A stretch of DNA of 60,220 nucleotides from Paecilomyces variotii. Lineage: Eukaryota. Positions 1-24,300 of the stretch are shown here, piece by piece. Under the pieces are notes generated by a model that was not told the origin of the DNA, ran no database searches, and was given only the letters and a program-made list of their open reading frames with translations. Made by a program: the position numbers and the translations under genes. Every line of letters begins with the position of its first letter. Position 1 is the first letter of the stretch. The stretch lies in the NCBI GenBank assembly GCA_004022145.1, contig RCNU01000016.1, one strand, 5' to 3'.

Positions 1-1372
1 ATTAATCTTAGATTGCTAGCTTCTTAATAGCCTATAATATAGATTTAGATTTAATTATTCTTAAAGAGTTATTTATTAATCTTAAGGCTATTATATTTAA
101 AATTACTATATTTCTCGCCTAATTTATTAAGTTTAATAGCTTTAATAAGATTAATAATAATCCTTATATTTACTCTTACTTTCTTTCTTTTCTTAATACT
201 ATTTAAAAGGTAAATTAGTAAACTTTATTGCCTAATATTAATATGCGAGATATATATTTCTATTTATAGGCTATTTAAAAAAATTATTAAAAAGTCTAGC
301 TTACTATATTTAGTATACTTATAAAGATATAAATAGCCGATTTAATCTAGGACTAATAAATCTAATATATCTAAGGAATTACCTTAATTACTTCTTTAAA
401 GTATTATAGTAAAGGAAAGTATTTTTTAATTTAGAATTGCGATCTGCGAGACCTTAGCTAAAAATAACTATATTAATTTCTTCTTCTAGCATAGAACTAT
501 TTCTTAAAGTTAGTAAGAAAAAAGACCTTAATTTTATCTTTATAGTACTATATTAATAAAGTTAAATTAGGGTAAAATAAGTGTCTCTAATATATTATAA
601 AATGGTTAAGTCTAATAGCTTAAATAGAGGATTATCTATTATAAGAGAATAATATTTAACTTAAAAACTATATTTAAATAAAAAAGAAATAGTTAAGAGT
701 ATAATATAATCTTAATAGTTTTAACTTAAGTTAGATTTTTAATAAGTTATATAAATATATAAGATTTTCTTTAGAAGTTATAATTTATTAATTATATATA
801 GATTTTTTATTAACTTATTAAGAGAATAATTTAGAAAATACTTTTTATTTAAAATAATAATAGTAATTAAATATATATTCTTTAGTTTAATAACTTAAGC
901 TTTTAAGAAAAATTATATATTATATATAATAATACTATATTAGCACTATAGTTTATAAATATATATATTTCTATAGCTATAACTCTATATATATATATTT
1001 AATAATATCTTAAAAGACTTTCTTTATAGTTTTATTTTTAAATTAATATAATAATATTATATTTAAACTATTTTTTAGCTATAGATTTAAAGGTCTATAA
1101 CTAATAATAATATAAAATAATATAAAATTAAAGCTTTAATATCTATAATACTGCGAACTATATAAACTATTTAAACTAAATTATTTAAGTTAATCTAACT
1201 TAAGTTAGTTTAGCGTATAATCTTAGCAAATATTTTAGTTTTTTTAGTTTTAAACTAAACTACCAGAATATAGTTTAGTTTAAGTATAGTTTTTTTATCT
1301 TAAACTGAAAACTACTATAAATAGTTTAACTCCCTCTTTAAACTAAACTAAACCGCCTATATAATTACTTTA
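1..1372 (-). mobile_element. Left end of a second copy of the hAT element, running out of the window
   Basis: 1-1372 is the reverse complement of 6843-8210 with transition differences and small indels; terminates in tataattacttta (1360-1372), matching the TIR. Confidence 0.93.
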
Positions 1373-2769
1373 TTAAATATTTAAGATACTTTTAAAAGAG
1401 TCTTATTAATATTATTAAAATTATTAAGAATATCTATAAACTTAATAATAAATTACTTTATTATAATAATAATAATAGCAGCGCTTTAGCGCTTATATAA
1501 TATTAAAAAAAAGAAGCTTAATTTTAATTAGCTAGGGGATTTTATAAGTAATAATCTGTAAAATCTTAGTAAATTAAAAGTTTTACTAGTTTTAAATAAA
1601 ATAGATAAGATTAATAATATTCTCTAAGGTATAATAATACTATAAGATATAATTATACTTATATAAGGTAATAAGAAGCTATTACTGCTTTTAACTTAGG
1701 GCTTATATATTAAAGATATTAATAATTATAATAAGTATACTAAAGATAAAATTATTATAGGTAATTCTAGAGATAAAGAAATTTTTTATAATAAAAATTA
1801 TAGTTTAATAAAGATAAGTAGGCTAAAAAGATTATATTTTATTTATAAGTTTTAAAGCTTTATTTATAAGATTAAATAAAGATCTTAAAAAGAGAGAAGG
1901 TTATTAATATTAGCCGGCTATAAAATTTTCTTAAAACTTTTCTCTTTACTAAAATATAAGAGCCTATTAATTATAGCCCTATTTAATATATAAATAATAT
2001 TTTTAAAGAAATTAGTATTCTTTATAAGAGTAACTATATATTTAGCTATTTATTTAAAGTTAATATAATACTATATAAGCTCTATATTTTTAAAGCCTTA
2101 CTTATTTATAATATTTCTTTTTATATTCTTAATTTATCTTTTTCTATTACTAACTTTCTTATAAATAGCCTTAGTATCTTTAAAACTATTCTAAAATTAT
2201 TTAATACTAATAGTATATAATTAAGCTTAGGAGAATTTAATATATTCTTATAATTATATAAGGAGATTATCTATAGCTTTATAATTCTAATGCAGTATAA
2301 TAGCTAGCTAAAGCTAATAACTATATTAAAGGATTATTAGTTATTAATTAATAAAGCTAATAGCTTCTTATAGAGAAGAGAACTAAATATTATTAATTAT
2401 TAAAATATTATCTTAATTAATTAATATAGGTATAAATATAGTAAAGTAAGAAGTAATCTAATAATATAATATAATTATAAAAAAATAAAGTAAGAAAAAT
2501 AAAATAATAGAAGACATTATTTAATAAAAGAAAAAAGAGAATATACTTATTAATAAAATAGCGAGATTTTAATCTCCTTTTATTATCTCTAATTAAAGCT
2601 AAAATTAACTATAATCTTCTTAAAATAATAGAGAATAGAAGATAAATTTAGTAAATATTTTATTAAGTAATAGATAAGTAAATAATAACTCTTTAAGATA
2701 ATAGTAATAATAGGTATAATAAAATAATTAGCTTAAGGGTTTAGAAAAGATAAAAAAAAAAAAATAAGA

Positions 2770-5700
2770 ACTTAAAATATAGTAAGATATTAAATTTATT
2801 ATATATAAATTTACTGCTTAAGGTAAATTTTTAAATAAGAGTAACTGCTATTATATAGATTTAGCTAATTAAATAACTTTATTAATTAGAATAAGTTAGA
2901 TTAATAATTATAGCTATATTCTATTTAAGTAAAATCTAGTCCTTTATTACAGTTTTAATATTTATATTACTTAATTTAGCCTTATTATCTTTTTATTTAT
3001 CTTTAAATATATAGTTTATCTTAATAATACTATTTATTTTAAAAATGCTATTCTCTCTATTTAAAAAGTTAACGGCCTTATTAAACTTAAGAATAAAGCC
3101 CTTTAATTAATTCTTATTAATAGTTCTATTTAATAATATATTATTTAGCACTTTAAATTAGTAAGATCTTAAATCTTATATATATAATATAGGCTAAGCT
3201 AGTAAAAGGCTAGCTTATTTAAATAAGATATATTATTCTCTCTCTATATATTATAAAGTAATACTAGAGATTTATTTTTAAGCTCTTTAATATAGATATT
3301 ATAACAGTTATTAAAATATTCCTTATTTTACTTATATATATACTTTAAATATATAGCTACTTCTTTAAGGTTTTAATTACATTATTTTATCTAATAAGCT
3401 CTTATAATAAGTAAGTTAATAATAGTTTAAATAGTCTTCTATAAAAGTATAGACTATATAAGAATTTCTAGATTAATAAATAAAATTACTTCTTAACCTA
3501 TAAGTAGATAATATAAGGTTATACTAGTATTTATATAGATAATATAATAGTTTATAAGCAGTATTATAGATAGATATTAAAGCTATCTTCTACTAGTCTT
3601 ATTTATTATCTTAGATAATATATTTTTAATAGGATAATATTTTATATCTATAATATTATTTAACTATAGGTAATATAATAAAATAAGAATTTTTTTAATA
3701 TTATATTTAGTAATAAAAGCTTTTACTAAGGCTTAATTCTTTAATTCTCTATTTTTAATAATTTTAAGAGGTAGATTAAAATAGTAAAAGATATCTTCTT
3801 ATAAAAACTTTATAACTATATTTAAAATAGCTATAATAAAGGTATAAGCTTTTATCTATTTAAATAAGCTATTCCTAAAAATAATAAGAAAGTTCTTATT
3901 ATAATCTAGAGATATATAGATTATATTAATATAAATTTTAGCCTATAATATTAATAGCTATATTAAGTATAATACCTTTTCTTATCTATTTAATTCTCGC
4001 AATTAATATAGAAAATAAGTCTTAATATAATATTTTATATTAAGATATAGGCTTAGCTATTAATAGTAAGCTATAATTTAGTAGTTTATACTTTTCTTTC
4101 CTCTATAACTATATTCTTTATATATTATATATAAGATTCTCTTCTTATTTTCCTTATTATTAATAACTCTATATAAAGGTATATTCTTACTTATATAGCA
4201 GAATAAATACTAATCTTTAATTAAAAATTTTAAGGCTTTCTTCTAAAACTATTAAAATTCTCCTATTAATATACTCTAAGGCTTTTTTAGAATTATTAAG
4301 TACTTAATAATATACTTAGATTCCTTAAAATAGGAAAGATTAAAGATATAGACTTCTTCCTTAGCTTAAGGTATAGTCGCGCATATAAGCATAATATATA
4401 TAAGGAAGTAATCTAGCTAGTCTTAGATAAAATTATCTATATCTTCTTTAATATTAGCCTTATTAAGAAATAATATTTAAAATAAACTATTTACTGCAAT
4501 ATATTTTTATCTGAAATATATTTAATAATAAAATTAAATAAGTAAATCTATATAAGCTAATTAATAATTAAAGCACTAAGAAAATCTATAGCTAATTTAT
4601 TTAATTATATTACTAGAGTTTAAGTATTAATCTTAAGCTTAAAATAAATTCTATATAGCTAATAGTAAAACTTCTTAAATATCTTTAAGATTATCTTATA
4701 TTCTCTCTTTCTTATATTATACTTCTTCTCTATATTATTTTATATATTAGACTTATATTTAATAAGATAATACTTATCTTATTATTTTTATATAATAATA
4801 GCTCTAAAGGCTTTTTTATTTATATTTATAGTAATAATAATATTAAGCGAGTTTTAAGTATAATTAATAAAGATAATTATCTAGTTATTTATAAGAAGCT
4901 ATTTAATCTCTTTAAAGACTACTTATTACTTCTTACCCTAAATTTATTTTACTCTTATTTAAAGTAAATAGTAAAGAGGCGCTATAATAACTCTATACTA
5001 TAGTATAAGAGCTTTAAAATAAGAAGTTAACTTAAGAAATAAATGAATTTAATTTATATTAATAGGCATAGGCTATTTTATAATCTTTTAAACCTTTTCT
5101 CTATCTATATAGTAGCTAGAATAATTATATAACTATTCTATTATCTTTAGACTAGCTATAATAAATTAGGACTTTTTAGTAAATATAATTACTCCGATAA
5201 GCTTAAAAAGATAAAAAATATAGTTAAGATTCTGAAGATATTCTAATATATATAGGTATATATTAAGAAATACTTTTTTATTATTATACTTTAAGTAAGA
5301 ACCTTTAATACTTATATTATTTAAGAAGATCTTAATAATCTTAAGTAAAGCTTCTAGCAGAATAAATATTATAATATGCTTAATTTACTTAATAAAGTTT
5401 ATAATATTTTAGAGAATTATTACTTAATATAGAAGCCTAAATAGAGTTTAAATAACTATTATATCTCTATTTTCTAAGATAAAAATAATTTAGTTATATC
5501 CTAAAAGTAAATTAATAAGTAAACTTAAAGATAAGCTATTAAAATCCTTAGTAAATTTATTAATATTTAGAGGCATATTTATATTATAAACTATTACTTT
5601 ATTAATTTATATAGTAGTATTAATAAGCCTATACTTACTATTTTTCTTCTTAACTAAAAACTATAAATTCTAGTATAAACTATAATACTATTTAAGAATC

Positions 5701-6842
5701 TTATTTTTAAAGTCTTTTATATAATATTTAAGCTATAATTTTCTTAAGCACTTAAGGCGGCTAAAATCTAGGGACTTACTATACTTTATATAAAATAGTC
5801 TTAATATATTATAATAGAGTAATCTTAAAATAAATTCTTTTAATATTCTCTATAAACTATTTTAAAATATTTTCTCTTTTATAAAGTAACTTTAATAGTA
5901 TAACTCTTTTATTCTCTAAAAGCTTTATACTTATAATTAATTATTCTACTTATTTAGAAGTTAAATAAGACTCTTATATAATTATTATAATTTATAGCTA
6001 TAGATATTTATTATATAATATCTCTATATTTAGTACTAAGTTTCTGTAGTAATATTCTAAATATAGCTCCTATTATCTTAGATCTTCTTTAGGTATTTTC
6101 TTATTATTTAATCTCCTTAGGTTAATAGAGTTTATCTTATTAGCCTTTTACTTCTTTAGTATATTAACTGCTATATAAATATAGTTATAATAGCCTATTT
6201 ATAGCTTAAGGTCTAATTACTTTAATATTTTATATTTAATATTTAAGTCTATAAGATTTAGGCGGTAAAGGAATTTTACTAGATTATCCTTAGCCTCTAA
6301 TTAGCTAATTAATTTTATAGGTTATAATTTATAAAATCTTAATAAATTAAAAGTCTGCATTTTTACAGTTATATATTTTATTCTAATTACTTTAATCTAG
6401 ATATATAAGTTTACTAGTATTTTTATTACTACTTTTCTTTATCTTTTAGTAAATATTATACTAGTAAAATAATATCTGCTTAAGCTTTTAAAGACTTTAG
6501 CTAAATATTCTTTATTATCTTAATATTTTAGTCGGTTAGTCTATATCTAATAAACTTAAAGTAGTTATTTTAAATCTAAGTAAATAATATAAAACTTTAA
6601 CGTTAAGTCTCTTAGGCTAATTAAATCCTCTTAAATAAGCTCTACGTTTATATAATATAGCTAACTGTATAGAAGCCTATAGAGATTTAGGGCCTCTTAT
6701 TAGCTAAGAGTAAATACTAAGTTAATATAGTTATATATAATAACTATCTATAAGAATATTAAAATCTTTTAAACCCGCTAACTTTTAAGTCCTTTAATTA
6801 GCTTAAGGTTTATACTAAGCCGGTATAGTTATACACAACAAC
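2770..6842 (-). pseudogene. pol: Gypsy pol (RT, RNase H, integrase), RIP-inactivated
   Basis: Reverse-strand translation IFLNNISIKGSYLKYN at 5283-5330 restores to FLDDIGIKGPYSKY by transitions only; integrase core motifs at ~3550-3850. Confidence 0.82.
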
Positions 6843-7060
6843 TAGAGTAGTTATATAGGCGGTTCGGTTCGGTTTAAAGGGGGAGTTAAACCGCCTATAG
6901 CGGTTTTCAGTTTAAGGTAGAAAAACTGTACTTAAACTGAACTATATTCTAGTAGTTTAGTTTAAAACCGAAAAAACTAAAGTATTTGCTAAGATTATGC
7001 GCTAAACTAACTTAAGTTAAATTAACTTAAACGGTTCGGTTTAAATAGTTTATATAGTTC
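6835..7060 (+). repeat. Left TSD, TIR and subterminal GGTTC/AACCG pentamer repeats of the hAT
   Basis: ggcggttcggttcggttt at ~6858-6875, aaaccg and acggttcggttt units, plus RIP-decayed versions (gtttagttt). Confidence 0.85.
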
Positions 7061-9027
7061 GCAGTATTATAGATATTAAAGCTCTATATTATTTTATATT
7101 ATTATTAGTTATAGACCTTTAAATCTATAGCTAAAAAATAGTTTAAATATAATATTATTATATTAATTTAAAAGTAAAACTATAAAGAAAGTCTTTTAAG
7201 ATATTATTAAATATATATATATATAGAGTTATAGCTATAGAAATATATATATTTATAAACTATAGTGCTAATATAGTATTATTATATATAATATATAATT
7301 TTTCTTAAAAGCTTAAGTTATTAAACTAAAGAATATATATTTAACTACTATTACTATTTTAAATAAAAAGTACTTTCTAAATTATTCTTTTAATAAGTTA
7401 ATAAAAAATCTATATATAATTAATAAATTATAACTTCTAAAGAAAATCTTATATACTTATATAACTTATTAAAAATCTAACTTAAGTTAAAACTATTAAG
7501 ATTATATTATACTCTTAACTATTTCTTTTTTATTTAAATATAGTTTTTAAGTTAAATATTATTCTCTTATAATAGACAATCCCTTATTTAAGCTATTAGA
7601 CTTAACTATTCTATAATATATTAGAGATACTTATTCTGCTTTAATTTAGCTTTATTAATATAGTATTATAAAGATAAAATTAAGGTCTTTTTTCTTACTA
7701 ATTTTAAGAAATAGTTTTATGCTAGAAAAAGAAATTAATATAATTATTTTTAGCTAGAGTCTTATAAATCGCAATCTTAAATTAAAAGATACTTTCCTTT
7801 ATTATAATATTTCAGAGAAGTAATTAAGGCAATTCTTTAGATATATTAAATTTATTAGTCTTAAATTAAATTAGCTATCTATATCTTTATAGGTATATTA
7901 AATATAGTAAGCTAGACTTTTTAATAGTTTTTTTAGGTAGCCTATAAATAGAAATATATATCTTATATATTAATATTAGGTAATAAAGTTTATTAATTTG
8001 CCTTTTAAATAGTATTAAGAAAAGAAAGGAGATAAGGGTAAATATAAGGATTGCTGTTAATCTTATTAAAGCTATTAAGCTTAGTAAATTAGGCGAGAAA
8101 TATAGTAATTTCAGATATAGTAGCCTTAGGATTAATAAATAACTCTTTAAGAATAATTAAATCTAAATCTATATTGCAGGCTATTAGGGAGTTAGCAATT
8201 TAGGGTTAATTTAATTTTCTAATACCCTTAAGTTAAATAGAATAATTTTAGAAGAAGAATAATTATTTTTTATAAAATAATAAGAAAGAAATAATAATTT
8301 CTATTAAGAGTCTTCTATATAAAAAATTTAAGAAAAGAATCTAAATTTTATATTCTAACTTAAGTTAAAATATATTAAAAGTTTCTGCTAAAACTTTAAA
8401 GGCTATAAAAAAAAGGTCTATTATTTTAAGAAATATACTCTGCTAAAAAGTAAGAGAGTAATAATTTTTTTTATATAATAAGTCCTACTATTAATTAAGA
8501 GATAAATAGTTAATATAATCTAACTTAAGTTAGAATGTTAACTTCTTAATTAGGACTAGTATAAGTTATAGATTATATAAACTAATTTTATTTTTTTCTT
8601 ATTATATTTATTTCTTTTCTTAAATATATTTTTTATATTTTTCTTACTAATTTTAACTTAGTTAGAATTGGCTTTTTATATATAGATAAGAAAATCCTAT
8701 AAGAATAAAATAATATCTTATTAATATTATTATCTTAATTTAAATTCTTCTAAGACTCTTAGTATAATAAGCTTTTAATCCTTACTTTAGTAGTCTATAT
8801 TTTAACTTAAGTTAGAATACTGCAGATTTATTTACTCTATTATAAGATTTATAAAAATAAGAACCCCTAGATTATTTTACTAAATATTAGAACCCTTAAT
8901 CTATTTTATTACCCTTTAAAAACCCTAGTTTGCTTATAAATAAACTTTAGTTAAATAGTCTTAGTATAAAGTCTCTTAATAATCTTAACCTATTAGACTA
9001 TATATTTTAACCTAAGTTAAAACTAAA

Positions 9028-11990
9028 ATGCCGCCTAAAACTAGTCTATTACCTAAATTTATTATTCCCGCAGTATTATTAAAAAGAAAAAAAAAAAATT
9101 AGCTAAGCAGAGTTTAGTAGAGATAGCTTTATTAATCTTTTCTCCTTTCTAGGAAGATACAGTTTAACTAAAACTTAAAGAGGTATTTCTTAAGACTCTA
9201 TATATTAATATATAAGATCTAGATAGTAAATAGAAAGATAAAGAAAAAAATTATAATTTTAATAAAGATTATATAAAGAACTTAAAGCAGGAATTCTAAG
9301 TAGCTATTTAATAGTAAAATATTAGCACTCAGATAAAAGTAATAATAAAATATAGCGACTTTAAATAAGTTATTAAAACTTTTATTAAAAACAATAATAT
9401 AGATAATGCTAATACTATAGAGGCATATAAGGAGGTATATAAGGAGGCTCTTAATATTATGCGCTCTAGAAATAAGATAGAAAGAGATATATTTATCTAT
9501 CTTAATAAATAGCTAGATTCTGTTTAGAAACTTATTTTTTAAGTAAGATAATATTGCTAAGCTGCTTTATTAGAGCTTCTGCTTAAGCAGACTTAAGTAG
9601 TTATTACTTATATTAAGACTTCTAAAGGTAAAACTATTTAAAAAATAAGTCTTAATATATGTTTTTATTTTAACTTAAGTTAGAATTTAGCTAATTATAG
9701 ATTAATAAGCCTAGTTATAGGCAGTTAATATCTATAATAAAGAGAAGATAGATATAGAATTATTAACTATATTATGCTTAAACTATAAGAAAATAGAGAG
9801 ACTTAATATAGATAGAAAATATATACTAGCTTTAATTTAGGCCTTTAAGCAAAAAGATTAAATATAATAGAGAGAGTTACTTAAAAATATAGATAATTTT
9901 AGAAAGTAAGTTTAGCCAGTTATTAGTATCTTATTAAAATATATAGTATGCGCTTAAGCTCTCTTATAAAAAGACTTATAGATATAGTAGATTTTAAACT
10001 ATATTTATACTCTATATAGGAGAGTATATTATAACTTTACTTTTAGTAAGCTTATAATTAATTTAAAACTAAATTATATAAGTTAAGAAAATTACTTAGT
10101 AGTTCTTAATTATTCTAACCTAAGTTAGATTTAAAAAGCTAAGTTTAGAAGGTTTAAAAAATAGGCTATAAAGATCTTTATAGAGAAGTTTAGCGCTTAT
10201 ATCTTAATAAATAATTAGTAATTTATTATTAATTATTATTACTAAGCTAATAATAATATGCTAAGAATATTATTCTTTCTATTTAGGTCTAATTATAAGA
10301 GAAATAAGCTATACTCTGCCCTAGATAAAAAGTAGTTTTTTAAACTGTCTCTACTATAGTTAATAGTAGAGGTTTCTTCCCTTAAGAATCTTATAAGGAG
10401 ACTAGGATTTCTTATTATATTAAATAATAAGGACTATATAATAATATAGAAAAACCTGTATAAAAATAATAACTTTAAGTTCTCTTTTTAGTAAGATTTA
10501 ACTTAAGTTAGATATTAAAGATATAATATTAATTAGTTATAGAAACTTATAGGTCGAACTATAAAATAAAGTAATTAATCTATTAAAAGCTATATTTAAA
10601 TATATAATATTTTAGTACTAACTAGAATAATATTATTTATCTCTTATATCTAACTGTTTAAAGATATTTTAATAGGCTTATAAACTTTAGTTAATTCTAT
10701 TTCTTATTATAGAGGACCCTAATGCAGCTGCATATTTTATTAATATGTTTCTTAATAAGATCTATAAAGACCCCTATTAGGGCTAGTAAGACCTAAAATA
10801 AAGTATAAGCCTTTATTTAATTTAAGTTAGAATTTAGACTAATCCTTTTTAGCTAAATAAGCTACTAAATATACTGCGAGATATAGATATTATTAAAAAA
10901 GATAAAGACTATTATAAGGAGTATTAAACTTATTTATTATAGTTTAACTATTATTATTAGGCAAGAGTCTTATAAAAATACTTAAAAATAATTAGAGGCG
11001 AGTTTAAGGGCGTTATAAAAAAGTTTAGTAATACTATTAAGATTATAAGTTTTAAAAAAACTAACTTAAGTTAAAACTAATATAATATAGGGTAACTATA
11101 TATAGACTTTTATAGACTTTAAAAATATAACTATAAGAATATAATTTTAATAGAATTATAATATTAAGAATATTTATATTTTAAGATATTATAAAAAAGA
11201 ATTAAAGAAAAAGGCTAATCTACTAAAGGCGCTATAGACCTACTAGTATATAAAAACTAATATAATTAAAATACTGAAATTAAGCTAGAGAAAAGCTAAC
11301 TCTTAAAAAGAGGATCTTATCTAAAATAAAATATATATATTATTAATTTAACTTAAGTTAGATATTAATCTAATATAAGAGAAGTAAAATAATTATCTTA
11401 GAGCTTTGCGGGAGGTAGCTAATCTACTTATATAATAGGATTAAGAGCCTAATATTAATAATATTAATAAATTACTAGCCTAATATATTATTAATTATAA
11501 TTTAATTATTTAGAAAGCTATTTAAGAGTAGAAAAAAATATATATAATAAAGCTAGGTCTGTCTATTAAACTTTTATCTAAAAAAGAATTAATAAAGGAT
11601 AAAAAATAAAAGAAGAAGCAGGAAAACTTAGAATAATTAAGATATATAAATCTTAACTTATTATATAAGAAGCAGAAAATCTTAAGAGACTTTATTAGAG
11701 CTTACTTATAAATAAGTATATTTTATCTAACTTAAGTTAGATCTAAGATTAATTTATTATAGACTATAGATTTAATATAAATAGCATAATAAAATAAGAG
11801 TAATAAAGTAATCTAGGCTAACTTAAACAGGCTTTAGCAAGAAAAAAAAGATAAAAAAAAGGAAAGATAGAATAGGCAGATATTAATTAAAGTTTTAATA
11901 AATAAGAAGAAATTAAGGTTTTAGTAGATATTAATTAAGGTTTTTTAAGGGATAAGAATTTTAAGAGAATAGTAAATTATAATAATAATA
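9028..11990 (+). pseudogene. Multi-intron cargo gene of the hAT; predicted ParB/Srx-like (DUF3723-like) N-terminal domain, RIP-inactivated
   Basis: ATG CCG CCT AAA at 9028 (probable slip in the A-run at ~9087-9098). Codons ttt taa gta aga taa tat tgc taa gct gct (9537-9566) restore by transitions only to LQAGQHRQAA; upstream NRxFDEDHVKNLKQEF (~9249-9296); downstream AWLWAVDIYD..LRSN..PDTDG (~9709-9820). About seven short introns. 3' end approximate. Confidence 0.62.
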
Positions 11991-12809
11991 ATTCTTATAA
12001 TTTAATTAAACTAACTTAAGTTAAAACTTTATAAATAAAGCAATTTTTAATATAGTAATAATAGGCAATTAATAAGATCTTATAGTCTATTATTTTATAC
12101 TACTAATATAATAAACTATCTAATATAGTAAAAGAGTAAATAGTAAGTATAAATTCTAACCTAAGTTATATTTAAATAGGTGCTTATTTAAAAATATAGC
12201 ATTTATAAAAAATCTTAATCCTAAAGATTAGCCTTCTAGTATAGTAAGTAATTTAAGTATAATAGATTAAGGTACTGCTATTAACCTATCTTAAGCATAT
12301 TATTTTATAATTTATTAACTAGACTTAGCTTACTAATATTAATATAGATAGGTTCTGAAAAATATCTAATAATAAAAAAAAAAAATAAAAAGTCTTAGAG
12401 ATAAGATACTTCTGCACTATTGCGATTAAACTTTTTAAGTAAATTCTAACTTAAGTTAGATTTAGGTATATTATTCCTAACGCAGAATTTCTTATACTTT
12501 TTTCTAGGCTAAAGTTATTTAATATATTTTAAAGTTTTAATAGTTCTTAATTCCCCTTATCTATAATTTTTTTTTAACAAAGTAAAACCCTTACTTCTTA
12601 TTATTATTTTAAAAGATAATAATAGTTTTTAATTATAGAATATTTAGTTCAGTTTAATCTTATAAAAGCTTAATATAATCTAATTTTTATCTTAGAACCT
12701 TTAAATATAATAAATAAGAATTTAACTTAAGTTAGAATGCTATAGATATTATACTGCCGCCTATATTATTATCTTTAAATTTCTCTTCCTTATCTTTTTT
12801 TAATGTAGA

Positions 12810-15400
12810 TATATTAAGATTACCAGGTCCTTTATTATAGTTTTAGAATTATGCTATTTATACTTCTATAAAAACCTATAAGACTTCTTTATCTTTAGAT
12901 ATTAATATCTAGAATACTAATTTTAATTATAATTCTATTAAATAATCTAAGCCCTAATCTGAAATTAATACTCCTAACTTAACCTAACTTAAGATAGTAA
13001 GATATAGTTAAATAAAGGCTATTATTTATCTAGCTCTTCTAGAATAAGTTTAAATCTTTAAATCTTAATAAATTAAAACAGAGTTTGCAAAATAATAATC
13101 TAAGTTTTAATAAGTAAAATTAAAAACTTAATTAGCTATATAGTAATACTATTAAGAAGTTATAGATAATATATCTAGCTTTTCTTATATATAATATCTA
13201 TATTACTTAATATTTCTTTAATATCCTTATAAAGGAGGAAATAGCACTAGCTTAATAGCTACCTATATAAAAAGGGCCGTATATAGATCTAGAGATAAGA
13301 CTTAGAAAAATAGTAATATTTAAAATATATTAATTGTAAAGGTAAGAACTAGTTAATTATTATAAACTTTATTACTAATATTTCTATTAGAAAATCTTTA
13401 ATCTAATATATATATTAGACGCGTTACATAATTAGATCTTATATTTTATTACAGAATATTGCTAATTATTTTAAATAGTTAAATATATTTAGTTCTGCTA
13501 TATGCTATATACAGCTGCTAGTAATTTATATCTAGAATTACTTAACCGATATTAGATTTAAGCACGCCTTTTTAAACTTAAAGAAATTAATTATATAGAA
13601 ATATTATTATATTTACTTAAGTAAAGAAAGATTTCTCTAATATTAGATTATTAGACTAGTTAAAGTTAATATTCTTTTCTTACTATAATAGGGTATTTTA
13701 TTAATATAAAATAAGTATATAGAGAAATACTCTTAGCCTTTAATCCTGTTTATAAATTATATATTAGGAAGAACTTAGTTAAAATAATGCTAAAGAATCT
13801 TTATTAATATAATCTATAATATTAAATCCTTACTATTATAATAGATAATATAAGTAATAATATTATTCTAATAGTAGAGCTAGATAAAAGCCTAAGAGAT
13901 AAGCTTAAGATAAATTTATTGTTAGAAGATTTCTAAGATATAATATTAAGTTAACTTATTTTAAATTGCTATTATATTCTATATTTAGTATATATTTTAT
14001 AATTTATAGTTAATGCTTTATTAGGTAAACTCTATATTAATACTCCTATTAATAATAGTATTAGTTAGGATATAAAAAAGAATAGAGGCCTATTATATCC
14101 TTAAGATATCTTAATATTATTAGAAAAGGTATATTCTCTATTTAATTTAAGTTAGATTAATATTAATAGGTTTTTATATAAGTTCGCAAGGTTACTAGAT
14201 TTATTAATATAAGCCCTTAATATTAAGAATATTTCCTAATATTATAATAATTAAGTATTAATTAATTAAAATTATTACTTCTTAATTGCTAGATATAATA
14301 GAATTTAATATATTTTATATTTATATATACTCTTAAACTATATGCAGTAATTAGATAATTTATTATATTATAGGCTAATAAAGATATTTATTTTCTAATA
14401 TTATCCCCTACTAAATAGTATTAGATTAAATATCTTATTAAGTTAACCTAGCTATTCTATAATCTTACTCTTATTGTATTAAAGATAAATAGTCTATTAG
14501 TTTATAGGGTTTTTAAAATTTATAATATTATCTTTAATTATCTTAATAATTATATAAAGCGTTTAAAATTAAAAAGAGCTATATAGAAGATATAATTTTA
14601 AAATATTTTATTTAAAGCTTATAATAAGTTACGAACTTATTATATTAAAATATATAAATTTTAAGGATTTATATATATAATTATAATAATCCTTTACCCC
14701 AGTTTAAAGCTTAAATATTTTAAAATTTAAGTCTGGCAAGATATAATAAAAAACTAGTATAATATTTATAAAAAGATTTTTTATAAGGTATTTTAATACT
14801 ATAATAATTAAAATCTAAATATTAAGGTATAATTAAGAACTTATTTATCAGTCTTAATATTAGATTATGCGCTTATATAATCTAAATATTATTATCTTCC
14901 TTTAAGTACTACTAGTACTTATTAAGAAATTTAGACTTATCTTATTAAAGGTAATATTCTATCTAATATTATACCCAAATTACATAGTTTTATTTTAACT
15001 TAAGTTAGATTAGCTTTATTAGAATTAGATAATATCCTTAACTATTAGAGAATTAATAAACATTAATTTCTAATTTTTATAATAATAGCCTAAGATTTTT
15101 TTATAATCTTATTAAGTAGTATTAGTATAGAATAATTATTTAATAGTACTTAAGATATCTGCTATTACTAATATAGCTAACTACTTCCTAATATAATCTA
15201 TGCTTTAATACTTCTTATATATATTAAAAATTTTATTATTCGGCGGGAGTTTAAGGCAATAATTAATAATATAAATATAATACTTAATTATTAATAATCT
15301 AAAAGAGAAGAGACTAAATTGCTAAACCTAATTAGTAATAATAAGGATATAGATAATATATTAGAAAAAGAGATAGAGGTTAATAATAAAGATTGTTAAA
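12810..15400 (+). pseudogene. hAT transposase (BED finger, DDE core, hATC dimerisation domain), RIP-inactivated
   Basis: De-RIPed motifs: GGNGTSSMATH (~13233-13266), SLxLDCWTS..GYFID..WxYREILL (13634-13736), TITTDNASNN (13832-13861), PCLAHILQ (13979-14002), LNYWR..MARDF..SVGVERLFNSARDICHYRRSQL (~15037-15183). Introns at ~13342-13390, 14129-14181 and 14951-15022. Start approximate. Confidence 0.92.
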
Positions 15401-15739
15401 TAGAGTAATTTAAGGGTTAAGGTCTTTTAAATATTTAAATAGATTAACCTATTACTAACTCTATATATAATAAAGGAGAATTAAATTAATTGCCTATATT
15501 TAGAGCTTTTATATATTCTTAGAGGAATATAGTAACTATAGATAGACTTAAATCTTCTAATTATCGCTTGCGCTAGATTAACTATATTAAAGGCTAATAT
15601 AAATATTAGTAATCTAACTTAAGTTAGATTTAATTATTAGATCTAATATCTTTCTATTAATTTCTATTTAATATTTAATAATAAATATTATAAAAGAATA
15701 AATAGTTCTTAAAGGTCTATATAAAAATTAAGATTAATA

Positions 15740-15957
15740 TAAAAAAACTAAAAAACTTAAATAAAACTAAAAAAACTAAATAAAATTGAAAAAATTAAAC
15801 CTATCTGAACTATATAGTGCATTATAAACTATTAGTTTAGTTTATAAAATCTATAAACTGTTCTAGTTTATAAAATAGTAAACCGAACTAAACTATAGGC
15901 GGTTTAATTTAGTTCGGTTCGGTTTTTTTAGTTTACTATAACTACTCTAATAATAAC
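15740..15957 (+). repeat. Right subterminal AACCG/GGTTC repeats, TIR and TSD of the hAT
   Basis: Runs of aaaactaaaa, aaaccgaactaaac (~15879-15893), gttcggttcggttt (~15912-15925), then TIR 15937-15949 and TSD 15950-15957. Confidence 0.85.
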
Positions 15958-18900
15958 TATAAGTGCAAATATTAAAATTCTAAAGCTTAAAGCGAATACC
16001 GAGGCATATTACTACTATAATACTAAAATTATAAGTATTATATAGGTCTTAAGGATAATTACTTTAAAGTATAAAATAAAGAGATTCCTTTAATTATATA
16101 ACTGCTTAATTTACTTACAGGATTTAAGTTTAGGGCCCCTAAAGGCCTTAAACCTAAATCGTTTTATATCTAATACCTTTAAATCCTCTATTTAAAACTA
16201 AGCGTAAAGCTCTTATATACTAATTTAAATCTAAAATAAAAGATAATAGTAATAGCTTTAAGTCTATATTAACTAGCTAGCTGTAAAATCTGTAAGTAAG
16301 TCTAGGACACGCGTAGCGTAGCCTAAGGGCTTATCTTTCTATAGATATAATAAAAAATAGCTTTATTATTAAGAGTTTTTATTATAAATTTTAATTTTAT
16401 TTACTAGAGATATTTAAGAATATAATCTATATCGCCTATAGATATAATAAAAATAAGAAATTATATAGTAATATAATTAATAGTAATAGGTATATCTTTA
16501 TAATACTCTATATAGTTTATAATAGTCTATATTTAAACTATTATTAAGTAGTTTAGACCTAGAATTATAAATAGGCTAAGATATTAAATAAGCCCTAGGC
16601 TTATTATATTAATTTTAAAACCTATATTAAGAATAATATATACTTTCTTCTTATTAATTACTATTATAGTCTTTAATATTTTAATTATATATATAATTTC
16701 TTTATTATATATTAGTAATATATATTCTCTAAGAAGTCTTTAGCCTATAACTCTTATTTTAATATTTATTCTCTTTATATTAAGTTTAGGAAAAAATATA
16801 ACTTTAGCATCTAAAAATAATATTTAAAAAAAGATATAATAAATAGTAAGATAATTACTAAGTAATTCTTATATAGTTAAATTAAAGATAGGCTAATTAA
16901 GGACTTTATTTAGAAGAGTATTAATATCTATTAAGTTCTTAAGCTTATAAAATAGCCTATTAAGTATACTTTTTATATTTAGCTTTACTTTTAATTTATT
17001 AGATTATATAAGAATAAGCTTTATATTTTCTATAGTTATATCTTTTATATAGATATTATCTGCTAAACCTTTTATAATTATCTTAAATAGCTTCTAAAAA
17101 GACTATATTCTAATATAATAGCTCTTAATAGCAGAATAAGTATTAATTTAAGAAGCCTTAGAAGTTAATCTTAATATAGTAAATCTTATATTTACTTAAT
17201 AGGCTATAATACTGTTTTTATTACTATTTTCCTATTCCTTATTTATATTATTAACCTTATTATTCTGCTTAAGGGTTAAGCTAATTAAAGTAAACTAAAA
17301 CTAAATATAAGCTTAAACTATAGGCTTATTATTTTAAGTAGCTTCTTATATAATTTTAATTAGCTTTTTACTATACTAAAAAGAAACTTTAATATCTTTA
17401 TTCTTAGTCTTACTAAAATAAATATATATTATTTCTAGGTATTAATAAATATATCTCTTATAAATATTCTTAAGATAATTAAGATAATTATTAATCTTTT
17501 TATTAGATTTTTTATAATAATAGTAAATAGGCTTTACTTACTATTAGTAAGATATAATTAAGATAATATTTACTCTTATAGTAATATAGTATTCTTATTA
17601 ATTCTATTTATCTCCTTATAATATAAGAGCCTTAATAAATAAAGATAGAGCTTTAAATTAAGTAGCTAAGTTACTAACTATTTTATCTACCTCCTTATAT
17701 ATAATCTCTAATTAGCTTAGCTAGTAATTAGGATTTAACTATTATAGCTTTAGTTTAGCTAGAGATTAATATTCTTTTATTATAATATTTAAGTCCCTAT
17801 TTTCTTTTTAAAGTTTAAAGAGTTTATTAATATAATTATTTATAATAATAATCTCTAAAACCTTCTATTTTATTTTATTAAACTTTATTTCTTTTAATTC
17901 TTTAAAATTTATCTTAAGCTTCTTTATTACCTTCTTATTAAGCTTTTTAAATAATCTTTAGAAAAACTAGATATTATAAGTATATTTATCTAAATAACCT
18001 TTCTTAAAGACTACCTTAAAAATACTTATATACTCTTAGATATAATCCTTTACTCTATTATCCTAGGCATACTTCTTATTTTTATATACCTTTAAATACT
18101 TATAAATATATACCTATTATTTAATATCCTTCTTATAAAACTCCTTTTTAACTTTTTTATAAAAAGCCTCTTAATCTTGCTTAATATAAAATATAATTAT
18201 CTTTATTTAATTATTAATCTAAATATTATAATATTCTGGCATTTAATAGAAGATTTTATTATTCTTTCCTTTAAGTCTATAATTTATATATAGGTTTATA
18301 AAGCAATTTAAGAAGTTAATAGTATTCTTTCTATTAAAATAAAGAGCTCCTAATATATCTAGTAATAGTATAGGGATAAATACTTAAGATATAACTAAAT
18401 TAGCTATAGCATATAACTTCTATTTATTTAGAGAAAGAAAAAAAGTTTAGAAAACTAATAAGATAGGGGTATTTTAATTAAGTAAAGATTTTAATTCTTA
18501 AGTATTATCTCTCTTACTATTTATTAAGAATAATTATTTTAATTCTGCTATTAGAGAGAATTCTATCTCTCTTTTTTACTCTAGATAAAGTATTAATATA
18601 ATAATCTCCTATAGAAGACGCCTTTTTTAATTAGCTTTCTTCTATTTCTTATAAGCTATTCTTTACTAGCAATAAGTATACTTAACTACTTTTAATAGGA
18701 TATAATACTAAATAAATAATAAGAAGATTTACTACTTAAGAATAGTCTTCTTATAAAGATTATTCCCTTTAGAAGTTAATATAGAAAGGCTCTTTATAAC
18801 TTATATTTAAAATAGTTTATTAAACTAGCTTCTCTATATATTATATATAAGGACCTTAATAATTCCCTTTTCTCTTTGTAATAGGATTTAGGGTTAACTT
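15958..18900 (-). pseudogene. gag: gag/protease region of Gypsy relic 1 (continuation past the hAT)
   Basis: Joined to 6842 through the 8-bp TSD; lies 5' of RT on the minus strand; zinc-knuckle-like CYYC..H....C at ~17555-17595. Confidence 0.6.
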
Positions 18901-18989: not shown

Positions 18990-19250
18990 TTTAATATAGA
19001 AAAGATATTAATAAGGAGAATAGCGTAAGAAGCTATATAAGAACTTAAATTATAAGGCGTAACTAGGTATAGAGAATAGAAGTATTATAGGATAACCTAG
19101 TACTATATAAATAGGACTATAGTATATATAATGCTAAGAAGTAAAGAGATATTAATCTAAATATATAGTATAGTTAAGGGAATAAGCTAACTATAGCTTC
19201 GACTATATAATATTATTACGTAATATAGTTATAAGTTCTCTATAATATTA
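18990..19250 (-). repeat. Probable 5' LTR of Gypsy relic 1
   Basis: Non-coding, relatively G-rich block directly upstream of gag with a composition change near 19250; no partner LTR in the window, so boundaries are unverified. Confidence 0.4.
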
Positions 19251-20106
19251 CCTTTTTAATATTAATTAGTTAAAGACTCTTTTTAATTAGTATTTCTTAT
19301 CTCTTAATATTATAAAGTTTATTAACTTATACTTTTATTAGATATATAGCTACTATTTTTTAATCTCTAATACTAAAAGCTAATTCTCTTATAACTATTA
19401 AAGTTTAATATAATTATTTAATAATTAATAAGACTTAATCTATAGTCTTTTAGCCTTATTTCTTTATAGCTTTATAATAATCTTTATTAGTATATTTATA
19501 ATTTTTTTTACTTATATTTTTAATTCTTTTAGCTTATTAATAGTTAATATTTTTTTTTACTTTTTCTAATAGCTCTTATTAGTTTAAGAAATTATAAAAA
19601 TTATTAATTACTTTATTATACCTGTTTTAAAAATTTAAAATAATTACTACTATATTACTTATAAACTAAATCTTTTCTTCTTTATTATTAGCCTTATTTA
19701 TTATCTCTTTTATAAGCTTATAAATTTTACTAACTATAATATATATATATATTTTAAGTTAAAGAGCTTTATCTTAATAGATAATATTTTATATTTTTAG
19801 TATATTTTTTTTCTATTTTTAATATATATCTTTATAAAATAATTCTTTAAAATAGTTTCTAAATAAAAAGATATATTTAAAAGATAAGATAAGGTTAAGT
19901 TTAGCTTAATTTAGTCTTTAATTACTTCTGCTATAGTATTATATAATATAAAAAATAAGATTTTTATAATAAGGTAAGAATCCTTTATTTATTACTTATA
20001 TTCTTTATCTAATATTTTTTATTTTTAGCTTTATTTATAGACTTTTTTAAGGTATTTAAACTAATATTATGTATTTTTTAGTTATCTCTTTTTTTTTCTT
20101 AATTAT

Positions 20107-21386
20107 TATTAAATATCTTTAAATTCTTTCTTTCTCTTAAAAAAGATACCTTTATCTTAAATTTATTTTTCTTCTCTTCTTATTATAGTACTAATACTTA
20201 TTTTATTATTATTTTTTTATTTCTTCTTCTTTTAAACTAACTTTTTATTTAATATTAAACTTATTTTATTACTAGCTTTTTACTTCTCTCTTTTTAAACT
20301 AATATTTTTAAAAGGAGAGTATTAGAATAATAACTATATATTTTAATCTAAGTAATATTTAATTAATATTATTATTATTATTACTTAATTACTAATTTTC
20401 TTACTTAAATATTATATTATTATTTATAGTTAATATTTTATTTTAATTCTCTTATAAATAATAGCCTTTTAAGTAATTTCTATAGATTAAATCTTAAAAA
20501 GCTATATTATTTAACTTCTTAAGCTTATAAGAATCTTTTTAAAGAACTTTTTTAATTTAATATAATTTAAGCTAGTAATATACTAGTTTAGTAAAGTAAA
20601 ATATCTTAAGCTTTATATTATAGAGTAAAATAAATTATCTTTTAATTAGCTATTTTTTATAAAATTACTTTCTATTATTAAAGGCTTTTTTACTAGCTTC
20701 TCTTATATATTAAATATAAAGCTATATTTCTTCTATATCTTAATCTTTATTAAATATCTTTAAATTCTTTCTCTCTCTTAAAGAAGATACTCTTATCTTA
20801 AATTTATTTTCCTTTTCTTTCTATTATAGTACTAGTACTTATTTTATTATTATCTTTTATTACTTCTCCTTTTAGACTAATTTTTTATTTAATATTAAAC
20901 TTATTTTATTATTAGCTTTCTATTTCTCTCTTTTTAAGCTAACTTTTTTAAAAAGAGAGTATTAGAATAATAACTGTATATTTTAATTTAGATAATATCT
21001 AGTCTATATTATCTTTATTATTATTTATTTGCTAATCTTCTTACTTAAGTCTTATATTATTATTTGCCGCTAATATATTTTCTTAATTATCTTATAAATA
21101 ATAGCCTTTTAAATAATTTCTATAGATTAGATCTTAAAAAGCTATATTATCTAACTCTTTAAGCTTATAGGAATCTTTTTAAAGGACTTCTTTAATCCTA
21201 TATAGTTTAAGCTAGTAATATATTAATTTAGCAGAGTAAGATATTTTAAGCTTTATATTATAAAGTAGAATAAGTTATTTTTTAATTAGCTATTTTTTAT
21301 AAAATTACTTTCTATTATTAAAGGCTTCCTTATTAGCTTCTCTTATATATTAAATACAAAGCTATACTTCTTCTATATTCTAATCC
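20107..21386. repeat. Tandem duplication, two units of ~640 bp
   Basis: 20107 tattaaatatctttaaattctttc recurs at 20748; 20701 tcttatatattaaatataaagctata recurs at 21341; the intervening sequence is collinear with transition differences. Confidence 0.92.
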
Positions 21387-24300
21387 CTAAGTTCTATCTA
21401 CCTTATATAAAAAGAAGGAGGTCTTCTATAGTTTTAATTTTATCCTATATTAATATCTTTTAAGTAAATACTTCTAATTTAATTAATAATATTATATTAT
21501 ATCTTATAATTACTCTAAATAGCGTTAAATTAATAAAGGTTTTAATTATATTCTTATCTGCCTAGATTATAGCTAGTAAATAATCTACTTAATTTATCCC
21601 TATTTTTTTATAAGTTTCTTAATGCTGCGTATAAAAGACTTATATATAACTTTAACTACTTTATTTACTTATAGGTTATATAGTAAGACTTTAATATAAT
21701 TAATCTTATATTTCTATACTAATATATTAATTATAATTTTATTCTCTAATCCTTTATTATTAATAAGAGTCTCTATTATTTTTTAATAATAAATCTAGTC
21801 TTCTTATAGAAACTTAATAATAGCTCTTAAAATAGGGCTATTAAGTGCTTTATATTTAATCTAGCTAAAATTATCCTAAAATATAATAATATAAATCTTT
21901 TCTTTATTAGGCAGCATAATCTTATAAATATCTAGATATAGCTTTAATCTCTCTAATAGAATAAATATTAACTATAAAGCTTCTTTTATATATTCTTTAT
22001 TAGCTCTCTAATATTTATTATATATCTTTATTTATCTAGTAATATACTTATATAGGCCTTTCTACTAATATTAATTAATTACTTTCTTATATATTGCTTT
22101 ATATTTTTAATATCTATATTCTTTATAAAAGGCAGTAAGAATCTCTTTTTACTTTCCTTTATTATTAATAACTATTTAATAAGGCTAATTCTACTATATT
22201 CTCTAGAAAAGAATACTATCTTGCACTATATACTTTATAGCCTTCTTCTTAAACTTAGCATATTATCTCTAATCTATATTATCTGATTTTATTATAGTTT
22301 ATAATTATTCTGCGATTAGCAAAGACTTTTTTAACTAATATAATATAGGCATTAACTAAGGGATATTATTTAATTCTATTTCTTATATATTAGTATAATA
22401 AATTATATAAAACTGTAGATCTAAGAATTCTTTTATATTATTATCTTCTATTTCTTTTAAGTCTTATTTTATTATTAGCTTCTAAGATAATCTATCTATA
22501 ATTAAGTTTTTTTTCCCCGATATATAGATAATATTAAAGTTAAATAGCTAAATCTAAATAATTCACTAAATAATTATTAACTTAGAGAAATCTATAGCTG
22601 TCTTATTTAATTGTATAACTAGAGTTTTTATATCTATCTCTAGTTAAAAATATATATTATATAAATATATTTAGAATTTATAAAGCGCCTTTAGTATTAT
22701 CTTATATTCTAGTTTTTTTCTATTATATTATCTCTCTACCTATATCTATACTCTACTTTTATATCTAGCTGGGTATCTCTTATTAAACTTTTTTTCTTCT
22801 TAAATAAATTATACTCTTTATTTATTACTATTAGTATTAATATTAATAATAATTATATCTCCCTTTTTATAATTAATTGGCTTAAGTATTAGTGCTATTA
22901 TTAGGGCTATTTTTAAAATATCTATTATTTCTTATTATTCTAACCCTTAAAAAAAGTCTTATCTCTTCTTTAGTATTAAGTATATTAGCTTAGCTTTAAT
23001 AATATATTCTTTAATTTATATTTAGTAATAGACTATAACTCCTAGAAATTCTCTTATTTTTTATAAATTCTAATAAAATAGCTATTTTAAGATCTTAATT
23101 ACTTTAGCCGACTTAAGATATCTCCCTTTAGTATTATATATATAGCCTACTACTTTAATTCCTAATACTATAAATTATAATTTCTCCTTAATAATTATTA
23201 AATCTGTAAGTTTAAGACTATATAATACCTTATTAATATTCTAGATATATTTAAATATAAACCTTCTAATTCCTAGTAGTATCTCTTCCCCTTTATAATT
23301 AGTCTTAGATTCTTATATTAGTATATTATTTAGAAATATATTATAGATATTAGAAATATTATCTGCTAATATTTTTATAACCCCTTATATAAACTCTTAT
23401 ATTATATTTATCTATCTTTAGAATAATCTAGCTTAATAAACTAAACTAATTTCTAATATATAGAAAGCTGTTAAGTCCTATAATTCTTTAGCTAACTCTA
23501 ACTAATTATACCTAGAGAATAAGTCTATTAGTATTAATACTAATATTCTACTAAACTCTTCTAAGAACTTATTAACTAAAGGGGGTAGATTAATATCTTA
23601 TATTATTATTTAATTAACTTCTATAGCTATATTAATTAGCTAATATTTATTATTTTTCTTTTTTACTAGAAATTATAGATTTTAATAGGGTCTTTAACTG
23701 CATTTAAGGATCTTTATATTTATTCTCTCTTTTATTATTTTTTATATTATATTATAGAGTGTCTTTAATATTAGGAAGCTTTTTACCTGCTATAGTTTAT
23801 AACCTATAGTCTAAATAATAATTAAAGATATAACTTTTAAGTATATTTATCTAATCTCTTTAAAGGTCTAGATAAAGGCTATTTTTTAGGTAAAAAGTAT
23901 TTCTATTAATAGTTCTTTCTCTCTTAACTATAGATTATTTTTTATAATAAGGTTCTTTAGATAGTCTAGTATTAATCTTATTTCTTTTTTAATATTTAAT
24001 ATCTTTAGCTAGATATATTTAGTAAATCTTTTATATATTTTTTTTATATTTTTTTAAGGGTTCTTATAATAATACTCCCTAATAATTTCTTTTTATTTTA
24101 ATAGCCCCTCTAAAGCTATTATAAGTCTATTTAATATATTTACTAAATAAATCTTTTTATATTTCTTCTTATATTATATATTAATAGAATATTTTATTTT
24201 TATAATAAAAAGGTTATACCTTTTAGATAATTTATACCCCTATAATCTTCTAACTCTTTTATTTAATTTAGTAGGTTTAAATATCCTTACCCCTTTATTT

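Follow-up and report, generated by a model that had tools for sequence, protein, structure and literature searches.

A 60,220-nucleotide stretch of Paecilomyces variotii DNA (contig RCNU01000016.1 of assembly GCA_004022145.1; the window, below) holds a 9.1-kb hAT transposon which carries a second gene beside that of its transposase. The plus strand from 9028 to about 11990 is probably the relic of this intron-containing gene, killed by repeat-induced point mutation (RIP), whose first ~230 residues formed a ParB/Srx-type module distantly homologous to the N-terminus of the DUF3723 proteins of Starships, and intact copies would specify an accessory factor. The gene is real, and the motif observation made in an earlier sequence-only reading of this DNA is confirmed, by database matches and by RIP-aware scores of 56-143 bits. 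The predicted module consists of the blocks QR/NR..DH[IV]K.L...F..G.RR, a GQHR loop of phosphate-binding type, a W..[DN][IL]Y strand and [TS]DGEH.

RIP is saturating across the whole 60-kb window, with G+C at 12-24%, TpA/ApT at 1.37 and (CpA+TpG)/(ApC+GpT) at 0.14, and no open reading frame (ORF) of at least 80 amino acids is left on either strand of it. Two copies of the hAT lie in inverted relative orientation with about 5.5 kb between them, and where they can be compared, 1-1372 (minus strand) against 6843-8210, they differ by 104 substitutions and 8 gap columns, all of the substitutions being transitions (0 transversions). By context these differences fall at CpT 55 times, at CpA 19, at CpG 20 and at CpC 10, which is a late stage with change mostly at CpT and not CpA. 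Since the substitutions are all transitions, the purine/pyrimidine identity of the DNA still keeps a record of the ancestral sequence. A second copy was sought for a de-RIP consensus, and the duplicated part of the element within the window is 6843-8210 only. Frames were translated through with stops as X (X-read, below), and in RIP-aware scoring every ancestral C or G was allowed to read T or A today.

The existence of the gene is best seen through intact relatives. An exhaustive phmmer search with the X-read frame of 9028, which covered this one frame, gave four matches at E<=0.001 among 1,835,955,588 representative proteins:

P0001: phmmer E 2.0e-21, query residues 227-355
P0002: phmmer E 1.8e-10, query residues 226-332
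P0003: phmmer E 1.2e-8, query residues 398-485
P0004: phmmer E 4.7e-5, query residues 280-352

A profile made from three of these recovered P0005 (368 aa), P0006 and P0007, and brought up P0008 and P0009 as weak matches solely via the unrelated N-terminus of P0001. The named relatives are all hypothetical proteins from P. variotii strains; records of this species for the family include KAJ9301415.1, KAJ9400980.1 and KAJ9272163.1 and the loci DTO169C6_6770, DTO282F9_7141 and DTO271G3_1722. P0001 to P0007 are seven fragmentary related models, six of them named and drawn from four strains, and two strains have two models each, as is expected of a multi-copy transposon-borne gene. The ~40 N-terminal residues of P0001 are common to P0008 and P0009 (weak DUF3669 matches, E 0.06), and P0001 itself looks like a chimeric gene model in which a host gene has been joined to a piece of a transposon gene; in P0006 two parts of the family are joined out of order.

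Three motifs had been read in the window by reversing C>T and G>A changes, and they are located where they were said to be and read as claimed, the first (9249-9296) and second (9537-9569) in the frame of 9030 and the third (9712-9820) in the frame of 9028. Free de-RIPing by itself is weak evidence for such motifs, and by our rough arithmetic several RIP-compatible G-x-H-R are expected by chance per 3 kb. Intact P0005 holds NRDINADHIKNLKNEF (with N52 at 9249), LQAGQHRRAALLELL and then YLWAINLYNK..LTALRSN..INTDREH, which are the three de-RIPed window motifs, with order and frames in agreement. At 9543-9557, the point set beforehand as the one at which un-RIPed copies could refute the reading, those copies read G-Q-H-R. 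The motif reading is thus fixed, because independent un-RIPed proteins show it.

RIP-aware alignment lays the intact proteins along the window as follows:

P0005 14-97 on 9135-9386, 73 bits
P0005 111-182 on 9453-9668, 56 bits
P0005 191-301 on 9748-10080, 101 bits
P0005 298-368 on 10120-10332, 60 bits
P0003 1-97 on 10201-10491, 102 bits
P0001 70-192 on 9724-10092, 143 bits

In the controls, reversed proteins stay at or below 22 bits. P0001 70-192 has 123 residues, of which 53 are identical to the window and 102 fit today's codons if RIP is allowed for, against a mean of 19% and a maximum of 30% compatible in 2000 random placements. The gene relic is laid out, all on the plus strand, as:

9028-9134, plus strand: putative start and presumed first intron; ATG at 9028, MPPK.. 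against MPHRPK in P0005, scored alignments beginning at 9135
9135-9644, plus strand: relic exon in the frame of 9030 with motifs 1 and 2 (AGQHR); 16 stops in 170 codons
9645-9690, plus strand: intron 1, 46 nt; begins ATAAGT (formerly GTAAGT) and contains the palindrome TTAACTTAAGTTAG
9691-10077, plus strand: relic exon in the frame of 9028 with motif 3; 15 stops in 129 codons
10078-10128, plus strand: intron 2, 51 nt; begins ATAAGT and ends CTAACCTAAGTTAG
10129-10491, plus strand: relic exon in the frame of 9028; 9 stops in 121 codons, 3' border uncertain between 10456 and 10491
10492-11990, plus strand: presumed remainder of the gene; no Pfam match in six frames, weak transition-invariant coding signal

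Intron 1 is called from a +1 frame shift between the mapped exons and from the window being 52 nt longer than P0005 there, and intron 2 from its being skipped by P0005, the P0001 gene model running a few codons into it; the exact borders of both are inferred from splice-site logic. Ahead of P0005 residue 14 the window is ~68 nt longer and the frame moves from 9028 to 9030, and a start at 9028 is plausible from the likeness of MPPK to MPHRPK. The mapped exons total 40 stops in 420 codons, and the gene is dead in this window, as is the whole element.

Some results, met with first, could be taken to mean that the motifs are nothing but reversions picked at will from decayed sequence. The six X-read frames of 8500-12500 are without any Pfam family, as are the three plus-strand X-read frames of 12400-15949 and of 6843-8600, and transition-invariant coding statistics show no depletion of stop-class codons in the plus frames. 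The transition-invariant coding signal within 9028-11990 is borderline (9072-9509 has 11.3 bits against shuffle maxima of 8.1-11.7), unlike the strong signal of the window's retroelement relics, and taken alone these statistics would have pointed away from a gene at 9028-11990. Pfam, however, can detect very little here: the unmistakable remains of a retroelement polymerase at 21603-24542 (minus strand) score only RT_RNaseH, and that at E=0.0027, and since so evident a relic gets no further the Pfam nulls are uninformative. The raw X-read frame matches proteins at up to E=2e-21 and the RIP-aware alignments are long, collinear and far over their controls; together with the 102/123 compatibility these results refute free choice as the source of the motifs, and we give it virtually no credence. 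A test of the ciliate code was meaningless here, every frame being open since TGA is rare.

Further searches for kin of the gene were negative. None of 578 candidates was at E<=10 in a word-indexed search for longer proteins with X-read 9030-9629, none of 590 pattern matches was confirmed in a metagenome scan with the P. variotii alignment, a sequence search of the PDB with P0005 gave nothing beyond a chance glutathione S-transferase match at E=1.5, and PADLOC and PHROGs gave no meaningful match.

The carrier had been read as a hAT, and that the gene lies inside one is borne out by inverted ends, an 8-bp duplication, subterminal repeats and a below-cutoff Dimer_Tnp_hAT match. The element occupies 6843-15949 (9,107 bp), with 13-bp perfect inverted ends and an 8-bp target duplication, and its parts are:

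6835-6842: left target-site duplication, 8 bp, ACAACAAC, equal to the right copy bar two C>T at CpA
6843-6855, plus strand: left terminal inverted repeat, TAGAGTAGTTATA, starting TAGAG; 13/13 against the reverse complement of the right end
6856-7045: left subterminal region, CGGTT at 6860, 6865, 6870, 6901, 7032 and 7037, AACCG at 6889 and 6966
15031-15210, plus strand: probable relic of the hAT transposase C-terminal dimerisation domain, PF05699 E=0.011, profile 19-78 of 84
15937-15949, minus strand: right terminal inverted repeat, TATAACTACTCTA on the plus strand
15950-15957: right target-site duplication, 8 bp, ATAATAAC
1-1372, minus strand: second, inverted hAT copy, its left end, cut by the window edge, 91.8% identical to 6843-8210

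Homology between the two copies begins exactly at 6843. In purine/pyrimidine terms ACAACAAC and ATAATAAC are the same, their two differences both being CpA>TpA, and CGGTT/AACCG repeats are clustered beneath both ends of the element. The terminal inverted repeats of hATs have the consensus YARNG, and the TAGAG start of TAGAGTAGTTATA is of this type. The dimerisation-domain match (15.9 bits, cutoff 21.4) is the sole family at E<=10 for X-read 15010-15399, and the same stretch scanned within a 1183-aa frame gave no Pfam match; neither a DDE/RNase-H-like core nor a BED zinc finger is recognisable by Pfam in X-read frames, where Pfam is near-blind. The transposase gene would occupy the right part of the element on the plus strand, with the ParB-like gene upstream on the same strand. 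In its 8-bp duplication, its short ends with a TAGAG start, its subterminal repeats and probably also its C-terminal dimerisation domain the element is like other hATs. Ordinary hATs are smaller, single-gene elements, and from them it differs in its 9.1 kb, its second large gene and some 24 copies of a 14-bp palindrome. In having an additional gene beyond the transposase it resembles ToxhAT, a fungal hAT which carries extra genes.

The palindrome is met with along nearly the whole element:

7007-15629: palindrome CTAACTTAAGTTAG, core AACTTAAGTT, 24 copies at no more than one core mismatch

The whole window has 18 exact cores, 15 of them in the hAT, 2 in the second copy and 1 elsewhere; sites in the second copy span 723-1206. 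Conservation is symmetric over 14-16 nt, with flanks at background level. The palindrome forms the 3' end of both mapped introns and stands also just before the exon with the hAT dimerisation domain, and this presence at intron ends of both genes suggests a shared history of gene and transposase. CTAAC is the branch-point consensus of fungi, and the palindrome may be a stereotyped intron end, or alternatively a protein-binding site positioned where coding permits; one copy, at 7009, is in the non-coding subterminal region. Of 44 RTAAGW (5' splice-like) sites on the plus strand 12 lie 15-75 nt upstream of a palindrome, where about 7 are expected, and of 47 on the minus strand 6 do, so that enrichment on the plus strand is mild.

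Two other ways of relating gene and element can be weighed at this point. The ParB/Srx module could be the N-terminal part of the hAT transposase, in a single fusion of ~9028-15400: both parts are on the same strand and in order, a gene end or stop is unreadable in RIPed DNA, and 10492 to ~12500 is without assigned content. The P. variotii models, on the other hand, are separate and short, none exceeding 368 aa (though they are fragmentary), a longer-protein search with P0002 had none of its 6703 candidates at E<=0.001 and thus offered nothing at 418-2000 aa (weak evidence), and the usual coding length of a hAT transposase is far below that of such a fusion, which we consider very unlikely. 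To the same low degree we entertain that the relic is part of another element, such as a fragment of a gene carried by a Starship, which landed in the hAT, and that the association is accidental. The window consists of RIPed repeats heaped together, with retroelement relics on every side, and only one full hAT copy is in view; against a nested insertion, no inner ends or duplication were seen, although no systematic search was made, and the palindrome occurs at even density throughout the hAT, both within the gene and to either side of it, with only 1 of the 18 exact cores outside the two copies.

DUF3723 is tied to mobile elements, the Starships, and is of unknown function according to PMC9156397, and its function is likewise stated as unknown in 10.1101/2025.02.28.640899. 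A likeness of the window's motif series to that of DUF3723 had been proposed from a set of motifs of that family (LHGRHR, WW.VDLY, SDGEI), and these are real. A degenerate pattern of them, run over a metagenome collection, gave 16 loci, and Pfam was run on the 5 ORFs with convincing context, the other 11 loci, with short or unrelated-looking ORFs, being left out. All five pass PF12520 (gathering score 22 bits) at 24-233 bits, E 5.9e-69 to 1.8e-5, and show the series as CL[HRQ]G[LR][HD]R or LEAGQHR, then WW[IV]VDLY, then [CS]DGE[IV]Y.

The two families are connected when the P. variotii alignment is set against that of these five sequences by local hhalign:

P0005 piece 1-125: P=5.9e-5 (24-93 to L021 54-128)
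P0005 piece 125-230: P=6.8e-5 (141-226 to L024 47-113)
P0005 piece 125-230: P=0.0061 (141-214 to L021 168-217)

The matches are collinear and cover P0005 24-226, so that the proposed DUF3723-like series is upheld by an intact protein aligned to five PF12520 ORFs. Reversed templates gave P 0.34-0.87, and 30 column shuffles per test gave minima of 0.039, 0.27 and 0.29. P0005 alone against the five-sequence alignment (A5) reached E=0.026, and the default column rule of hhalign masks the N-terminus of P0005; a local HMM (hidden Markov model) of the five sequences gives P0005 14.9 bits. Among the five is L024, whose ORF at 1185-1604 (minus strand) is just over the PF12520 cutoff at 24.1 bits and has LEAGQHRYAA in place of the usual CLHG.HR. 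BLASTP of P0005 against it has E=5e-5, and of the 16 metagenome loci it alone was matched when the P. variotii proteins were run against them by tblastn (E 0.004-0.01); by sequence it is the best bridge from DUF3723 to the P. variotii/hAT family. In the ESM Atlas the nearest named clusters for P0005 are DUF3723 at 0.95 (169 shared features) and 0.94, the family taking 14 of 30 named matches, with clusters of ParB_N, DUF6551 and GmrSD_N next at 0.88; for P0002 the nearest DUF3723 cluster is at 0.93. Scored RIP-aware directly on the window the five DUF3723 ORFs reach at most 17.4 bits, with reversed controls up to 19.3. These direct scores being at noise, the link depends on the intact P. variotii intermediates. 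PF12520 was found neither in a viral record nor in 14 control genomes.

What the two families share, all within the first ~200 residues, is [QN]R..D.[EK]H[VI].[RN][LV]K..F...G[CV]RR, [LC].[AG]G.HR..A, W..[VI][DN][LI]Y and [STC]DGE, and both are carried by fungal mobile DNA. They differ in that the window family has AGQHR and not HG[RL]HR, and one W instead of WW, and in that its carrier is a 9-kb DDE-type hAT and not a tyrosine-recombinase element. The homologous N-terminal module answers to PF12520 profile positions of about 1-115, out of 508.

The ParB/Srx fold, also put forward in the sequence-only reading, is indicated by a model of the DUF3723 ORF L021. Foldseek against the PDB lists ParB, Noc, KorB, PadC, sulfiredoxin and SbnI-type proteins as its top matches, the best being 6sdk_A at E=2.4e-4. 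VIA-align gives Noc 7ol9_A at Z 9.0 (root mean square deviation, rmsd, 2.7 A over 80 residues), ParB at 8.8-8.9 and sulfiredoxin 6ky4 at 8.4, the superpositions having rmsd 2.6-2.8 A over 79-81 residues with 12-21% sequence identity and lying in L021 core residues ~60-197. Z of 7-8 is frequent for models without a clear match, and it is the clean drop in Z and the uniform family of the matches on which the fold call is based, rows 1-31 being by their titles all of the ParB/Srx superfamily and everything thereafter at Z 3.4 or less. The core of the L021 model superposes on the CTPase-fold proteins ParB, Noc and KorB and on sulfiredoxin, and the G..R..A loop occupies the place of GERRxRA in ParB. 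Neither a helix-turn-helix nor a DNA-binding domain of parS type was identified, in contrast to ParB.

A second approach to the fold is through the P. variotii proteins themselves, which weakly match DGQHR (TIGR03187), P0005 at E=1.1e-4 (142-333 to profile 104-256 of 276) and P0002 at E=6.9e-4. According to PMC4619093, DGQHR belongs to the DndB superfamily and is linked, by way of DUF262/GmrS, to the ParB/Srx fold. The likeness consists in the GQHR residues and the weak HMM match; the differences are the first residue, which is A, and that the family is fungal and transposon-borne, in contrast to the bacterial genes for DNA modification or defence. PF14072, the DndB model of Pfam, has no match in P0005-P0009.

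Several of the results weigh against this picture. None of P0001-P0007 has a PF12520 match (P0001-P0004 at E<=1, P0005-P0009 at E<=10), and with P0005 215-368 the DUF3723 profile has no match (P 0.47-0.85, the template there being L018 alone). The DUF3723 likeness is one of the N-terminal module and is seen up to about residue 226. By Pfam's criterion the gene is no DUF3723 member, what is shared being an N-terminal module of ~200 residues, with the protein beyond ~230 residues not recognisably DUF3723 by sequence. Five sequences underlie the DUF3723 profile, and two that are nearly identical represent the P. variotii N-terminus. The DGQHR score of P0005 is 22 bits where the curated cutoff is 58.85, its pentapeptide is AGQHR, not DGQHR, and the five DUF3723 ORFs have no TIGR03187 match in NCBIfam. 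The AF2 model of P0005 is useless (pLDDT 39) and that of L021 middling (mean pLDDT 49, core 63-80), and the fold is one modelled on a DUF3723 protein, L021, and transferred by homology to the window gene. Finally the association of hAT and gene is a single observed case, that of this window.

As to function, the protein of intact copies would be an element-encoded accessory factor, and not a captured host gene; its ParB/Srx module would bind nucleotide in the region of the G-Q-H-R loop, and the protein may bind or act on element DNA and help the transposon to move or persist. The alternative is a passive cargo, in which the hAT captured a host gene or fragment with a ParB/Srx module that had no role for the element. 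Capture of this kind has some appeal, in that hATs are able to carry foreign genes, as in ToxhAT, and the database relatives are few and from one species. Related models are however found in several P. variotii strains, two apiece in two of them, the introns of the gene end in the same palindrome as the transposase intron and the 24 element sites, which suggests long shared history, and the closest family, DUF3723, likewise has ties to mobile elements (PMC9156397). It is because of the models in several strains and the intron signature shared with the transposase gene that a resident accessory gene is preferred to chance capture, which we judge unlikely.

A distant relative of the DUF3723 module here travels with a DDE-type hAT transposase, and few passengers of Starships are as constant as the DUF3723 genes. 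If the module aids both kinds of element its role would be general to fungal mobile DNA and not bound to tyrosine-recombinase chemistry, and modelling of the DUF3723 N-terminus as ParB/Srx with a G.HR loop predicts nucleotide binding together with DNA clamping or nicking. No link of DUF3723 to ParB, sulfiredoxin, DGQHR, DndB or CTPase was found in those parts of the literature that were available, and of the papers found on DUF3723 with hAT none is, by title and beginning of abstract, about a hAT-borne relative. For experiment, the small hAT and its kin in Paecilomyces would be much handier than a Starship of 100 kb; the window copy itself is inert, which tempers its importance.

A bolder proposal joins the palindrome to the fold. 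The hAT would encode a ParB-fold DNA-handling protein plus its sites, the 24 palindromes, placed in introns and other non-coding parts of it, being parS-like loading sites of the GQHR protein, and the DUF3723 module would do the same job in Starships. This is speculation with a small chance of being right, and if true would mean that two unrelated classes of eukaryotic transposon are served by a system of ParB/parS type.

The surroundings of the hAT are rich in other relics. The minus strand of 19246-26173 has a transition-invariant coding signal of 16-30 bits per segment and includes the RT_RNaseH match on 21603-24542, and by these signs is the RIPed relic of a long terminal repeat (LTR) retrotransposon polymerase. 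Between the inverted hAT copies there is a second retroelement relic at 4500-5654 (minus strand), which matches RT_RNaseH_2 (E=3.1e-6) and RT_RNaseH (E=2.6e-5). The strongest purine/pyrimidine coding-like signal of the window (33.9 bits, 694 codons) is at 16329-18410 on the minus strand, a short way beyond the right end of the hAT; its X-read frame has no Pfam family. At 47890-49350 (minus strand) a coding-like signal of 18.2 bits goes with a weak SH3_retrovirus match (E=0.019), and this is possibly the relic of a Copia-type integrase.

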